A DNA stretch of 64,000 bases from Escherichia phage vB_EcoM_LMP33: sequence record MK482689.1; one strand, 5' to 3'. Of the stretch, positions 49,871 through 54,946 are shown one piece after another; positions within the stretch are counted from its first letter, which is position 1, and the number at the start of each line of letters is the position of its first letter. The notes beneath the pieces are model-generated. The model was given only the letters and a program-made list of their open reading frames with translations. It made no database searches and was not told where the DNA came from. The position numbers were made by a program, and so were the translations under genes.

Positions 49871-49950
49871 CTCCGTTTAGCTCAGTTTGGTTTAGCAGCA
49901 CTTGCTTTGGGAGCAAGGGGTCGAGGGTTCAAATCCTTCAACGGAGACCA
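49871..49950 (+). tRNA. tRNA-Pro (anticodon UGG)
   Basis: Acceptor CTCCGTT/AACGGAG, anticodon arm CTTGC-TTTGGGA-GCAAG, T-loop GGTTCAAATCC, CCA encoded. Confidence 0.65.
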
Positions 49951-49957
49951 AATTAAT

Positions 49958-50035
49958 GTTCCAGTAGACAAAATGGTAAAGTCACCACTCTTTCAAAGTG
50001 GATATTTGAGGGTTCAAATCCCTTCTGGAACGCCA
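49958..50035 (+). tRNA. tRNA-Glu (anticodon UUC)
   Basis: Acceptor GTTCCAG/CTGGAAC, anticodon arm CCACT-CTTTCAA-AGTGG, T-loop GGTTCAAATCC, CCA. Confidence 0.65.
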
Positions 50036-50042
50036 GTTTTGA

Positions 50043-50114
50043 CAGAAGACCAATTACAGCAAACTTAATCTACTCATCTGAAAGTTAATCGGACAAAGAA
50101 GATATTTGGTCTGG
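50043..50114 (+). ncRNA. structured spacer element a (5' CAGAAGACCAATTACAGCAA ... TTGGTCTGG 3')
   Basis: Member of a 4-copy family; closing stem AGACCAA/TTGGTCT. Confidence 0.45.
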
Positions 50115-50125
50115 TCATTAAGAAT

Positions 50126-50202
50126 TGCGGGTATAGAGAAAGGGCGTCTCACATGTCTCATTAGCATGGTATCGGCAGGTTCGACTCCTGCACCCGCCTC
50201 CA
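50126..50202 (+). tRNA. tRNA-Met (anticodon CAU); 1:72 position unpaired (U-C)
   Basis: Acceptor (T)GCGGGT/ACCCGCC, D-stem GAGA/TCTC, anticodon arm CATGT-CTCATTA-GCATG, T-arm GCAGG-TTCGACT-CCTGC, CCA. Confidence 0.5.
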
Positions 50203-50208
50203 AATTTA

Positions 50209-50273
50209 CAGAAGACCGTTTACAGCAATATTTATTAAATTTTTAGCGGAAAAAATTGAAATATACGGTCTGG
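50209..50273 (+). ncRNA. structured spacer element b (5' CAGAAGACCGTTTACAGCAA ... ACGGTCTGG 3')
   Basis: Closing stem AGACCGT/ACGGTCT, covarying with elements a and c1. Confidence 0.45.
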
Positions 50274-50286
50274 TAATACTAAACAT

Positions 50287-50363
50287 GGTTAGGAAGCACA
50301 TAAGGTATGTGCGGTCGCCTGTTAAGCGAATGGCACAGGGTTCGAATCCCTGACTAACCGCCA
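50287..50363 (+). tRNA. tRNA-Asn (anticodon GUU)
   Basis: Acceptor GGTTAGG/ACTAACC, D-stem GCAC/GTGC, anticodon loop CTGTTAA, T-arm CAGGG-TTCGAAT-CCCTG, CCA. Confidence 0.65.
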
Positions 50364-50432
50364 AATTTAGGAGAGAAGCGATTGCTCACCGATTTGTAAG
50401 GTGCAAGTCCTTAGCCTGAATAGAAATTAAAT

Positions 50433-50520
50433 GTGTCGTTATCCCGTAGATGGTAGCGGTGGGGACTGTAAATCCCTTGTCATTGAGACTCGGTAGGTTC
50501 GACTCCTACACGGCACACCA
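50433..50520 (+). tRNA. tRNA-Tyr (anticodon GUA), long variable arm
   Basis: Acceptor GTGTCGT/ACGGCAC, anticodon arm GGGGA-CTGTAAA-TCCCT, long variable arm, T-arm GTAGG-TTCGACT-CCTAC, CCA. Confidence 0.6.
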
Positions 50521-50525
50521 ATAAA

Positions 50526-50603
50526 GGTTATGTAGTTTAATTTGGTTAAAATACTCCCCTGTCACGGGAGATGATGAGGGTTCAAATCCCTTCGTAACCG
50601 CCA
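50526..50603 (+). tRNA. tRNA-Asp (anticodon GUC)
   Basis: Acceptor GGTTATG/CGTAACC, anticodon arm CTCCC-CTGTCAC-GGGAG, T-loop GGTTCAAATCC, CCA. Confidence 0.65.
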
Positions 50604-50664
50604 ATTTTGAGAGGGCTATTTAGCCCCTCCCTTAAAGGGTTCTTACGAGTATCCTTTAAAGGAG

Positions 50665-50740
50665 CAGAAGACCAAATACAGCAAGAACGTATGAAAATTT
50701 CAAGCCAATTTAATTTTGAAAAATTTAAAACTTGGTCTGG
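50665..50740 (+). ncRNA. structured spacer element c1 (5' CAGAAGACCAAATACAGCAA ... TTGGTCTGG 3')
   Basis: Third member of the family. Confidence 0.45.
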
Positions 50741-50753
50741 CTCAACAAATTTA

Positions 50754-53008: not shown

Positions 53009-53027
53009 ATTTAAAGAGGCTATTTAG

Positions 53028-53585
53028 ATGAGATATTTGAAGTATGCTTCATGGATTTTCTTAGCTTTGTTAGAGCCATTTGCAGCAATCTTAGCAGTTA
53101 TCTTAGCACCTTTTGTAGTGCCATTCTACAGTGAGAAGAAAGGACACTTACCTTTCGGGTTCAGATGGATGGAGACATATGACAACCCAATTGATGGTGA
53201 TGAAGGCCACGTTAAAAGATGGGCTAATATTAGATGGATTGGTAAACTAGGTGTCTACATGCAAAGAGTCGGATGGCTCTGGAGAAACAAAGCTTATAAC
53301 TTCTCTTACCATGTATTAGGAAGAGATGTAAGAGATGTTACTAAGTGGAAAGGTAATATCAACGTAAGTTCTGACCCCGAAGATAATCAGACAGGTTATC
53401 TCCTAATGTGGAATAGTAATGCTTGGGGATTATTCGCTTTTATCCCATCAATTAAAATCTTTGGTAAACAATTTTACTGGAGAATTTATATTGGATGGAA
53501 ACTAAAAAGTGTTGTCCCAGAAGAAAGAGCATTCTCAAGGGAAAGAGTTATGTTGGCATTCTTTATTCATCCACTGAGAAAGTAA
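53028..53585 (+). CDS. hypothetical membrane protein embedded in tRNA array
   Basis: 185 aa with hydrophobic N-terminus (IFLALLEPFAAILAVILAPFVVPF); flanked by tRNA genes. Confidence 0.4.
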   Translation: MRYLKYASWIFLALLEPFAAILAVILAPFVVPFYSEKKGHLPFGFRWMETYDNPIDGDEGHVKRWANIRWIGKLGVYMQRVGWLWRNKAYNFSYHVLGRDVRDVTKWKGNINVSSDPEDNQTGYLLMWNSNAWGLFAFIPSIKIFGKQFYWRIYIGWKLKSVVPEERAFSRERVMLAFFIHPLRK

Positions 53586-53593
53586 AGATTTAA

Positions 53594-53669
53594 AGGGGAT
53601 TAGTTTACAAGGTTAAAACCTCGGTCTTTGAAATCGAAGAAGTTGGTTCAATTCCAACATCCCCCGCCA
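53594..53669 (+). tRNA. tRNA-Gln (anticodon UUG)
   Basis: Acceptor (A)GGGGAT/ATCCCCC with 1:72 mismatch, D-stem GTTT/AAAC, anticodon arm TCGGT-CTTTGAA-ATCGA, T-arm GTTGG-TTCAATT-CCAAC, CCA. Confidence 0.6.
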
Positions 53670-53671
53670 AT

Positions 53672-53750
53672 GCTCCATTACTCCAATTGGCAGAGAGGCC
53701 AGACTTAAAATCTGTGTTATGTATCGGTTCGAATCCGATATGGAGTACCA
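53672..53750 (+). tRNA. tRNA with UAA anticodon (Leu-type), class I architecture
   Basis: Acceptor GCTCCAT/ATGGAGT, anticodon loop CTTAAAA, T-arm ATCGG-TTCGAAT-CCGAT, discriminator A, CCA. Confidence 0.5.
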
Positions 53751-53755
53751 AATTT

Positions 53756-53831
53756 AGCGGTATAGCATAACTGGCAATGCAGCAGCCTCTGAAGCTGTCC
53801 TATTAAGGTTCAAATCCTTATGCCGCTGCCA
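53756..53831 (+). tRNA. tRNA-Gln (anticodon CUG)
   Basis: Acceptor AGCGGTA/TGCCGCT, anticodon arm GCAGC-CTCTGAA-GCTGT, T-arm TAAGG-TTCAAAT-CCTTA, CCA. Confidence 0.6.
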
Positions 53832-53862
53832 CTTCTAAGGATTCTTGCGAGAGTCCTTAAAT

Positions 53863-53938
53863 GTGGCCTTATCATAAACGGTAATGACCCATGCTGTGAA
53901 CATGGTCTATACGGGTTCAAATCCCGTAGGTCACCCCA
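53863..53938 (+). tRNA. tRNA-His (anticodon GUG)
   Basis: Acceptor GTGGCCT/AGGTCAC, anticodon arm CCATG-CTGTGAA-CATGG, T-arm ACGGG-TTCAAAT-CCCGT, CCA. Confidence 0.65.
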
Positions 53939-53943
53939 ATTTA

Positions 53944-54020
53944 TAGTCCAAGTAGCTTATATGGTTAAAGCGCGTGTCTGAAAAACATGAGAAGAGGGTT
54001 CAAATCCCACTGGACTACCA
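53944..54020 (+). tRNA. tRNA-Phe (anticodon GAA)
   Basis: Acceptor TAGTCCA/TGGACTA, anticodon arm CGTGT-CTGAAAA-ACATG, T-loop GGTTCAAATCC; 3' end ..CCA. Confidence 0.6.
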
Positions 54021-54036
54021 ATTTCAAAGGTGCTTA

Positions 54037-54771
54037 ATGAAAGAGATGACAGAACAAGGTAAGGAGATTTTTAATCTCTTAAAAACCGGTAAAGGGTTTT
54101 CTAACCCACTTATTACTGGTGCAGCAGTTCTCGGTGGAACCGTAGCTGCCTCTACATCACTTGTAAGCTCTATTAGCTCTGTAACAGACCCTACAATGAA
54201 GGAGAAACTTGTTGCTGCTGGACTTACAACAGTCCTTCTAAACAGCTTTACAACAAGCCTTACAAGCACTACAGCAACTACTAAAACTCTGACAGACTAC
54301 GGTCAAAAGTCTATTGATGAGTTTTCATCACGTATGCAGGTAGCAAAGGGGTATTCCAATGTTATGGGTGCAGCAGGAGAACAAGTTGGTTGTACACCAT
54401 TCAGTGGTATCATGGGTGTTGCTACAGAGTATGGTCAAAAAGCTATTGACATGATGAACAGTACACTAGATAGTGTTAATGGTGTGTTAAGTGACTTACA
54501 AGATGCTATTGATAAGGGTCTTGATACTGTTTCTGATTTAGCTAATCAGGCTGTTAGTAAGATTAATGAAGGTATTTCAAAGATTACAGCTTATGCAGAT
54601 GAAGTTGTGCAGATGATTGAAGAAGAAGCTTCCCTTATTGCAGAGTACCTTAAAACGAATATCAATGGGTTCTTAGCAGGTATCTTACCAGACTGGTTTG
54701 ATGATGCCTGTAAAACTGGTGTGATTGACACTATTGCAACACCAGAAATGAAGAGCGCATTACAGAAATAA
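54037..54771 (+). CDS. hypothetical Ser/Thr-rich protein
   Basis: Start placed at ATG 54037 (MKEMTEQG..., after AAAGG) because the track start at 53974 overlaps tRNA-Phe; about 244 aa. Confidence 0.4.
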   Translation: MKEMTEQGKEIFNLLKTGKGFSNPLITGAAVLGGTVAASTSLVSSISSVTDPTMKEKLVAAGLTTVLLNSFTTSLTSTTATTKTLTDYGQKSIDEFSSRMQVAKGYSNVMGAAGEQVGCTPFSGIMGVATEYGQKAIDMMNSTLDSVNGVLSDLQDAIDKGLDTVSDLANQAVSKINEGISKITAYADEVVQMIEEEASLIAEYLKTNINGFLAGILPDWFDDACKTGVIDTIATPEMKSALQK

Positions 54772-54773
54772 AT

Positions 54774-54866
54774 GGAAGATTAACCCTAAAAGGTAAGGGA
54801 GCAGTTTGCTAAACTGCCAGTAGCTGAGAAATCGGTGTACCAGTTCAAGTCTGGTATCTTCCTCCA
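54774..54866 (+). tRNA. tRNA-Ser (anticodon GCU), long variable arm
   Basis: Acceptor GGAAGAT/ATCTTCC, anticodon arm GCAGT-TTGCTAA-ACTGC, long variable arm, T-arm ACCAG-TTCAAGT-CTGGT, CCA. Confidence 0.6.
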
Positions 54867-54870
54867 ATTT

Positions 54871-54946
54871 GAATCCGTGACAGAAATGGCTATGTGCCTG
54901 TCTGCAAAACAGGTTTATAAGGGTTCGAGTCCCTTCGGATTCTCCA
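54871..54946 (+). tRNA. tRNA-Cys (anticodon GCA)
   Basis: Acceptor GAATCCG/CGGATTC, anticodon arm CCTGT-CTGCAAA-ACAGG, T-arm AAGGG-TTCGAGT-CCCTT, CCA. Confidence 0.65.

Follow-up and report, generated by a model that had tools for sequence, protein, structure and literature searches.

The tRNA island of a Felix O1-like phage: probable codon compensation and candidate non-coding RNAs between the tRNA genes

Introduction

What does a phage gain from a 5-kb array of transfer RNA (tRNA) genes, and what occupies the space between these genes? The question is raised by positions 49871-54946 of a 64,000-nucleotide stretch of Escherichia phage vB_EcoM_LMP33 (sequence record MK482689.1; the whole stretch is called the window here, and all window features described below are on its plus strand unless stated otherwise). 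An earlier note, made from the letters of the sequence, had described the array as a near-complete complement of about 27 tRNA genes for all 20 amino acids, interrupted by a promoter, a terminator and two protein genes, and had proposed that it makes the phage largely independent of the host tRNA pool. Our follow-up analysis reveals that the tRNA array is genuine, of an ordinary kind and known from the literature, and that what is new here is the contents of the blanks in its annotation, namely a transfer-messenger RNA (tmRNA)-like RNA that is widespread, covarying and coding-like, and a divergent Ro60/Y-RNA-like system. It is very probable that the best explanation of the locus is a joint one, in which a Felixounavirus tRNA island provides codon supply and is at the same time a non-coding-RNA locus (tmRNA-like RNA, Ro60/Y). 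The functions given here for the tmRNA-like RNA, the Ro60-fold gene and the Y-like modules are inferred; if they hold true, a putative tmRNA-like RNA would share an RNA island with a divergent Ro60/Y-RNA particle and D-arm-less tRNAs in Felix O1-like phages.

The tRNA array and its relatives

ARAGORN called 25 tRNA genes, all on one strand and exactly within the bounds (49871-54946) that had been proposed for a dense 5-kb array, and none elsewhere in the 64 kb. The Rfam tRNA model gave 24 matches at its gathering score, including 23 in common with ARAGORN and an extra one (51605-51683, 31.7 bits), and missed Met(50126) and Tyr(50433), both of which were called by ARAGORN. A CCA end is encoded by 24 of the 25 ARAGORN genes. 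The canonical set serves 19 amino acids, with Trp absent and Arg represented by a single gene (ACG). Thus, against the roughly 27 genes claimed by the earlier note, automated prediction yielded 25 (ARAGORN) or 24 (Rfam), and the claimed number and all 20 amino acids are reached only when two non-canonical genes are added. Multiple isoacceptors are indeed present for Lys, Gln, Ser and Leu, whereas Met comprises two CAU genes and Arg qualifies only if the non-canonical UCU gene is counted. Tandem one-strand calls by two tools and homology to annotated clusters place the array in the class of phage tRNA gene clusters.

The 5.2 kb around the array are 100% identical in phages vB_EcoM_LMP34 and LMP25. 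The tRNA features of the window match those of MK482690 (100% identity), and the gene order is also that of the annotated NC_005282. Salmonella phage Felix O1 has ~95% identity to the array region and a tRNA annotation in agreement with ours; in the deposited annotation of LMP34 and Felix O1, the tRNA order is identical to that of the window and the terminase large subunit follows next. Altogether, 410 phage records, mainly from Felixounavirus, match the array region. These sequence matches identify the array as a tRNA island of Felixounavirus, the Felix O1-like myoviruses of E. coli and Salmonella. Since this cluster was already described with the Felix O1 genome in 2010, when 22 tRNAs were reported by tRNAscan-SE and two of them were marked 'pseudo' (PMC3185647), the tRNA array as such is not new; 26 tRNAs for 19 amino acids have also been reported in a related Mooglevirus (PMC12482277).

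Canonical tRNA genes account for 1957 of the 5076 bases of the array (39%) and protein-coding sequence for another 1293. The remainder is not filler and contains conserved structured RNAs and genes. What had been taken as punctuation of the array in fact comprises the tmRNA-like RNA, the Y-RNA-like modules, the non-canonical tRNAs and a virion protein gene.

Codon usage and the role of the tRNA set

Codon usage was compared between 53 long open reading frames (ORFs) of the window, whose G+C content is 38.8%, and 29 annotated E. coli genes. The mean log2 ratio (phage/E. coli) was +0.49 for codons to which the island offers a Watson-Crick-cognate tRNA, versus -0.36 for the others (Mann-Whitney p = 0.024), which supports adaptation of the tRNA set to phage codon usage. 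The codon AGA was 16-fold enriched in phage ORFs, in which it made up 32% of Arg codons versus 2% in the E. coli sample, and NNA codons were generally enriched 2-3 fold (CUA 3.3-fold, ACA 3.1-fold, CCA 2.8-fold, UCA 2.7-fold and UUA 2.4-fold). Codon compensation is therefore supported: an AT-rich phage uses NNA codons and AGA far above the host level, and the mostly U34 tRNAs of the island would read precisely those codons and thereby sustain late protein synthesis. It is not obvious that a single U34 tRNA per four-codon box would read every codon. An own tRNA supply is thus the standard reading and fits the codon bias, although its description as near-complete for all 20 amino acids was overstated. 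The authors of the Felix O1 genome had already drawn the codon-bias explanation for that tRNA set, and remarked that an AGA tRNA was 'expected' yet not found (PMC3185647); the UCU gene described below, or the canonical allele found in sister phages, would fill this gap in AGA decoding.

A different purpose, that the tRNA set is chiefly a counter-defence which replaces host tRNAs cut by anticodon nucleases or abortive-infection systems and whose altered loops or architectures go unrecognised, follows a published hypothesis on phage tRNAs (eLife 2023, PMC10264068). The island spans nearly every amino acid, beyond rare codons, and its deviant tRNAs (the D-arm-less UCU species, the irregular CCA species and the short-armed Leu species) might escape a host-tuned nuclease. 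However, the anticodon choice tracks phage codon bias closely, and codon compensation alone accounts for that, so we consider counter-defence rather unlikely as the chief role. The two are not exclusive and can both hold.

A tmRNA-like RNA in the largest gap of the array

A distant BLAST search using the largest gap of the array revealed that positions 51441-51565 match unrelated phages at 72-81% identity, including swi2 (a siphovirus), Klebsiella phage May and other Ackermannviridae, and Schitoviridae, always in unannotated DNA near tRNA genes. Based on weak Rfam tmRNA-family matches, conservation and covariation, we delimited a tmRNA-like RNA of ~160 nt without a tRNA-like domain (51404-51564). 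Its 5' domain holds AUAGUUUUCGU and is variable among copies upstream of the tag, and its resume context is AUAAAU|GCA with UA at -5/-4. The tag ORF (51450-51479) has 10 codons encoding ANDNVFLAVA (the E. coli tag, for comparison, is ANDENYALAA) and is closed by the stops UGA UAG (51480-51485), which are located in a hairpin; the frame reads AUAAAU GCA AAC GAC AAU GUU UUU CUG GCA GUA GCU UGA UAG. Two H-type pseudoknots lie 3' of the tag (pseudoknot 2, 51497-51532; pseudoknot 3, 51532-51564). In an alignment of 27 sequences, 99.5% of the cells in these pseudoknots are paired, compared with 34-52% in slid controls, and double compensatory changes are seen in 8 of 14 pairs.

An exact pattern scan, which constrained just the first eight bases of the frame, detected the RNA in more than 120 IMG/VR contigs, and BLAST detected it in 757 phage records. 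Phage P1 carries it in the leader of the ban operon, between a 'dicF-like region' and tRNA-Asn/Thr, with the tag ANDDLMMVAA, and E. coli lambdoid prophages carry it between the Q antiterminator/tR' and the holin gene (the late-operon leader). A promoter of its own (TTGACA-17-TAGATT) directly precedes the swi2 copy, and a transcript from it would begin 2-3 nt upstream of the conserved core. The tag frame evolves like translated sequence. Of 45 distinct ORFs, 44 stop at codon 11, the exception being the contig L082 described below, and single-nucleotide differences between ORFs fall on codon positions 3, 1 and 2 in 44, 13 and 5 cases, respectively. The last tag codon is always Ala, with positions 1-2 fixed and all four third bases used, and Leu occupies tag position 7 in 41 of 44; another tag type is ANDDVVLMAA. 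There is no in-frame AUG, GUG or UUG before the GCA in the common type, in which an in-frame UAG is found at -24.

The RNA is thus at least built like the message module of tmRNA, if it does not also work like it, but falls outside the tmRNA family in its present definition. Our best guess is that it would act during infection as a template for tagging, or for an ssrA-like peptide. More specifically, it is possible, and we propose it tentatively, that a stripped tmRNA derivative exists in many enterobacterial phages (Felix O1-like, Vi1-like, N4-like and swi2-like phages, P1, and lambdoid prophages) and that its 10-codon tag is translated from a non-AUG GCA. Because a tRNA-like domain is lacking, such a mechanism would differ from that of every known tmRNA. 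It could involve either a split trans-translation that borrows a tRNA-like partner or ribosome loading independent of a start codon, and the phage could write, or flood the host with, the degradation tag. If the RNA is used as a template, phages, including the textbook P1, would gain a previously unrecognised handle on ribosome rescue and the ClpXP degradation tag, and it would become directly testable what template switching on the ribosome minimally requires. On the other hand, the RNA might be a decoy that mimics the mRNA/pseudoknot part and soaks up SmpB, ribosomal protein S1 or RNase R, thereby damping trans-translation. It retains UA at -5/-4 and the pseudoknots in the absence of the tRNA-like domain, which means that it cannot act as a normal tmRNA, and it is co-located with abundant stable RNAs. 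Nevertheless, a decoy could do without an intact frame of 10 codons, and the third-position substitutions, together with the unchanging Ala codon at the end, indicate that the peptide itself is under selection; we therefore regard a decoy as unlikely. No description of the RNA was found in the literature searched (tag peptides, and 'tmRNA-like' with phage), and this RNA, as well as the Ro60 fold of the upstream gene and the Y-like modules described in the next section, were unannotated in every record examined.

Several other readings of the element were considered and rejected. A permuted two-piece tmRNA using the 3' half of tRNA-Ile (Rfam match 51210-51482) fails because the match rests on a genuine tRNA, which does not adjoin the element in other phages. 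Recent acquisition of ssrA from the host was rejected on the grounds that the alignment with E. coli ssrA is no better than with shuffles. A closing helix formed by the flanking AGUGCUCUUUCC / GGUAAGAGCAUU repeats is not required, as swi2 and the window have no upstream copy. A minus-strand 46-aa ORF annotated over the element has a low-complexity translation and is unconvincing. Pairing between UUAGAA of the 5' domain and the anticodon loop of the UCU gene was discarded since the Felix-type element has no UUAGAA. Phage P22 was rejected as a carrier, there being no room for the element between tR' and gene 13.

Two further observations concern other loci. In temperate or sipho-type phages (L126 6140-6580, L127 2660-2760, L003 1610-1730, and many IMG/VR loci), the tmRNA-like RNA is embedded in chains of modules that follow the pattern CACAACAG-GUAAGAGCAUU[variable insert]AGUGCUCUUUCC-GUUGUGG, some inserts of which contain a T-arm-like GGUUCGAnUCC. 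The stems of these modules are 18-20 bp long and covary (GGGCGCU/AGCGUCC in P1), and the modules may serve as sites for RNase III, mark the boundaries of cassettes or belong to a larger RNA. The 146-kb viral contig L082 (~1470-1790, minus strand of the locus) has a complete circularly permuted two-piece tmRNA that was missed by ARAGORN; its acceptor piece ends with ...CGCCUCCACCA, and its coding piece starts with GGGGGCGAAAUAGGAUCGAC and has the tag ANDNFAPSDYALAA of 14 codons.

A Ro60-like protein and Y-RNA-like modules

Immediately 5' of the array is a gene (48290-49705) whose product is labelled 'RNA-binding protein' in RefSeq and PHROGs. Pfam assigned DUF2828 and DUF7788 to it and gave no match to the TROVE model, and phmmer found no match for the product among PDB sequences. 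Its AlphaFold model (pLDDT 89) was searched with Foldseek, and the top 12 PDB matches were all Ro60/Rsr/TROVE proteins, aligned at full length (E 2e-8 to 8e-7, TM 0.5-0.65) and including Ro60 of Thermus phage phiLo. The protein is thus predicted to consist of a HEAT-repeat ring and a vWA domain, i.e., to have the Ro60 fold (TROVE + vWA). Homologues with 47-55% identity are encoded by Yersinia phage P778, a 143-kb contig and Vibrio phage phi-pp2, all of them beside large same-strand tRNA clusters.

Downstream of this gene, on the same strand and at a distance of 0.3-1.2 kb (within the 4-kb criterion for YrlA), we noticed four candidate Y-RNA-like modules. Three of these are short (Y1, 50043-50114; Y2, 50209-50273; Y3, 50665-50740) and were recognised by motif; Y1, read from sequence, has the form 5' CAGAAGACC-AA-UUACAGCAA ... 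UU-GGUCUGG 3'. The fourth, Y4 (50754-50884), is long and YrlA-like according to its motif and minimum-free-energy fold. The pattern shared by Y1-Y4, 5' CAGAAGACC-NN-(U)UACAGCAA ... NN-GGUCUGG 3', occurs four times in the 64 kb, each time within the array, and the module stems covary among paralogues (AA/UU vs GU/AC). Y4 shows a terminal stem, a V hairpin (50789-50804), a T arm (50809-50825), a closed acceptor-like stem (50826-50843) and a D arm (50846-50860). YrlA Y RNAs are defined by this permuted, tRNA-like order of elements (PMC4201824). A compensatory change in the Mooglevirus Henu11 keeps the closed stem of Y4. A similar arrangement was observed in the 143-kb phage (L169), where five modules of the form AGAAG-NN-UACAGCAA ... 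CUUCUGA are located directly 3' of the Ro60-like gene and three of the five have T, closed-stem and D arms.

Ro60/Y RNA pairs are known in mycobacteriophages, CcrColossus, phage G and phiLo (PMC4201824, PMC12135203), and the Ro60-fold protein and Y1-Y4 would form a phage Ro60-Y RNA particle as in other phages. In the literature searched, we found no account of a DUF2828 version that is embedded in tRNA clusters. The occurrence of a Ro60-fold protein and Y-like RNAs near tRNA clusters would extend phage Ro60 systems to a large DUF family and tie them to tRNA metabolism. As a separate observation, an IS605 OrfB/Cas12f-like (TnpB-type) gene lies just past the tRNA cluster of the 143-kb phage (L169 12393-13652).

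Non-canonical tRNA-like genes and exchange within the island

Two further tRNA-like genes were called by ARAGORN neither under relaxed thresholds nor with introns allowed. The first (51605-51686; Rfam tRNA 31.7 bits, supported by its fold) has the anticodon loop CUUCUAA (UCU, reading AGA), a 7-bp acceptor stem that is joined to a normal anticodon hairpin by a 7-nt connector instead of a D arm, a T arm and ACCA. Its long variable region contains GUAAGUGGA, and GUAA(G)UGGA is conserved in this region. A compensatory change in the anticodon stem was found in L053 (GCUGU/ACAGC vs GCGGU/ACCGC). Genes of this type are also present in T5-like Klebsiella phages, 121Q-like giants, phi92-like phages and others, mostly unannotated or annotated as 'tRNA-OTHER'. 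As a canonical tRNA-Arg(UCU) callable by ARAGORN (score ~122) takes its place in other Felixounaviruses, the amino-acid identity of the UCU species is probably Arg. We also examined whether 51605-51686 might be the tRNA-like domain of a tmRNA (G3:U70, A73, CCA and a weak Rfam tmRNA match), and rejected this reading because of the canonical tRNA-Arg(UCU) in sister phages, the lack of G3:U70 in distant members, and the CUUCUAA loop and GG-A that all members keep.

The second gene (51830-51912), read by eye and supported by comparison, has a CCA (Trp) anticodon and no match to the Rfam tRNA model. It shows A1-U72, G73, a CCA end, an irregular D region, and a 5-bp anticodon stem with a 9-nt loop. 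L092 carries a compensatory anticodon-stem change (GUAAG/CUUAC vs AACGG/CCGUU), and a different tRNA-Trp(CCA) allele, callable by ARAGORN, occupies the site in L070 and L122. Both genes look maintained. In Felix O1 (L002), three HNH homing-endonuclease genes are located between tRNA genes (2903-3388, 3876-4268 and 5186-5599), compared with none in the window; the presence or absence of these genes, together with the alternative Arg(UCU) and Trp alleles, shows that the island is a hotspot of cassette-like exchange.

Evidence against the joint explanation, and the possibility of decay

Several observations weigh against the joint explanation of the locus. The canonical genes do not cover Trp, which would be provided only by a non-canonical gene that both callers missed, and the two non-canonical tRNA-like genes could be poorly functional. 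Regarding the tmRNA-like RNA, ARAGORN detected no credible tmRNA or linked tRNA-like domain (acceptor stem, T arm, CCA) in the more than 120 loci, and nothing tRNA-like was found in the whole swi2 genome beyond one tRNA-Met. Its Rfam tmRNA-family scores (13-26 bits) are under the gathering thresholds (47-84), with the alignment falling on the resume/tag part, and pairwise similarity to E. coli ssrA is limited to the resume region and does not exceed that of shuffles. The Ro60 link comes from a predicted structure at 11-16% sequence identity. No Y RNA family of Rfam matches the Y modules, and they do not have the exact 5' GNCGAA motif, the 5'-end motif of YrlA being GNCGAAN0-1G (Chen et al. 2014, PMC4201824); their 5' strand is CAGAAGACC, and GGCGAAG is found at the start of the T stem. 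In addition, promoter-like sites are not in excess (15 vs 13.5 in shuffles).

In the extreme case, the non-tRNA stretches would be functionless, decaying remnants, i.e., dead tRNAs, homing-endonuclease scars and captured tmRNA fragments. The HNH genes in the Felix O1 array, the variation of alleles among close relatives and the 'pseudo' marks that tRNAscan gave to some genes would fit such decay. However, this explanation fits the covariation poorly, since the elements are conserved across phage families with compensatory changes; one element has a coding-type substitution pattern, and the Y-like architecture recurs beside a 52%-identical Ro60-like gene in an unrelated phage. We thus find it very improbable that the stretches are mere remnants, and retain the joint explanation as codon supply plus non-coding-RNA locus.

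Promoters, hairpins, protein genes and layout of the island

A consensus scan ranked the Sigma-70-type promoter proposed by the earlier note at 51283-51311 (TTGACA-17-TATAGT, 11/12) as the best site of the region; it lies ~95 nt upstream of the tmRNA-like RNA and is identical in sequence to promoter P45 of Felix O1 (PMC3185647). Two promoter-like sites scoring 10/12 precede the first tRNA, namely TTGACA-18-TAAAGT (TG-extended, 49815-49844) and a second site (49724-49752) within a hairpin 3' of the Ro60-like gene. The hairpin proposed as a terminator at 52170-52191 does exist (A/U-rich, 8-bp stem with three G-C pairs, -10.1 kcal/mol, z -1.4), but its U tail is short and weak and the terminator scan passed it over. 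The scan did find an intrinsic terminator 3' of the array (55109-55132; GACGGUC...ACCGUC followed by UUUUUU; fold z -3.2). A long hairpin RNA of 146 nt with a closing stem of ~24 bp (50886-51031; -47.9 kcal/mol, z -5.7) is located directly 5' of tRNA-Lys; in the Mooglevirus Henu11, its stem shows compensatory changes and its interior has diverged. The spacer hairpin AUCUUUAAgGgCU...AGaGUCUUUAAAGAU (51565-51599, read from sequence) is probably a processing element, and several similar CUUUAAAG hairpins recur in the spacers of the array.

Both protein genes predicted in the array are genuine. The 185-aa protein (53028-53585; DUF7338, Pfam E 1e-61; phrog_2143, E 1e-79) has a hydrophobic N terminus, and its counterpart is Felix O1 ORF48. 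The second (54037-54771; DUF7217, Pfam E 5e-87; phrog_2114) encodes 244 aa instead of the 240 aa claimed and is a homologue of Felix O1 Gp49, which is present in virions according to proteomics (PMC3185647). A DUF7217 gene was also observed at the matching place in the tRNA array of Yersinia phage P778 (L168 13526-14269), preceding tRNA-Ser(GCU) and terminase; this shared position suggests that the structural gene is a stable resident of the RNA island.

The canonical genes, called by ARAGORN and also by Rfam except where stated, are arranged in five blocks and a single gene. Block 1 (49871-50603; Rfam 4/6) comprises Pro(UGG), Glu(UUC), Met(CAU), Asn(GUU), Tyr(GUA) and Asp(GUC), and block 2 (51034-51267) Lys(UUU), Met(CAU) and Ile(GAU). 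They are followed by the class II tRNA-Ser(UGA) (51926-52015), the sole gene without an encoded CCA. Block 3 (52271-53008) contains Leu(UAG), Lys(CUU), Ala(UGC), Gly(UCC), Thr(UGU), Val(UAC), Leu(CAA) and Arg(ACG), block 4 (53594-54020) Gln(UUG), Leu(UAA), Gln(CUG), His(GUG) and Phe(GAA), and block 5 (54774-54946) Ser(GCU) and Cys(GCA). The three tRNA-Leu genes (52271-52347, 52850-52927 and 53672-53750) are 77-79 nt long, class I-like with a short variable loop, whereas the Ser and Tyr tRNAs of the array have retained the long arm that class II tRNAs of bacteria should have; the Leu tRNAs adjoining the Ro60-like genes of three distant phages (L168, L169 and L170) are equally short. The first tRNA-Met(CAU) (50126-50202) is atypical, with a U1-C72 mismatch atop the acceptor stem, the loop CUCAUUA with U37, and a U73 discriminator, and may be of initiator, elongator or Ile2 type.

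Comparison with known systems

The tRNA clusters of Felix O1 and other Ounavirinae (wV8, Moogle, Sf14) resemble the window in genes, order and sequence (95-100% identity). Standard callers find 22-26 tRNAs in them, which serve 19 amino acids, the codon-bias argument applies to them equally, and their tRNAs themselves do not differ from those of the window. The published Ounavirinae descriptions examined do not mention the UCU/CCA non-canonical genes, the tmRNA-like RNA or the Y-like modules. More broadly comparable tRNA clusters are found in T4, T5 and KVP40.

tRNAs lacking a D arm exist in metazoan mitochondria, where tRNA-Ser for AGN is of this kind. Like it, the UCU species passes from the acceptor stem to the anticodon stem without an intervening D arm, although it belongs to a bacterial virus and has a long variable region with a D-loop-like GG-A motif.

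In comparison with Ro60 (Rsr)/Y RNA systems, especially Salmonella YrlA and the Ro60/Yrl of phiLo, the protein of the window falls into DUF2828/DUF7788 and not TROVE, the stem motif is CAGAAGACC/GGUCUGG and not GNCGAA, the Y-like RNAs are interleaved with genuine tRNA genes, and binding is putative. The window system shares with them the predicted fold of a TROVE ring and vWA domain, the end-paired terminal stem and a YUAY-type motif (UUAC), and the arms of Y4 (V, T, closed acceptor-like and D) follow one another as in YrlA.

Finally, in contrast to tmRNA (SsrA), both one-piece and permuted two-piece, the phage RNA is ~160 nt long, has no acceptor stem, T arm or CCA in cis and just two post-tag pseudoknots, scores below the Rfam thresholds and lies in phage tRNA or leader regions. 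What it has in common with tmRNA is AUAAAU|GCA with UA at -5/-4, a tag that starts with AND/ANE and ends with a hydrophobic residue and Ala, the stop(s) in a hairpin loop, and the H-type pseudoknots that follow.

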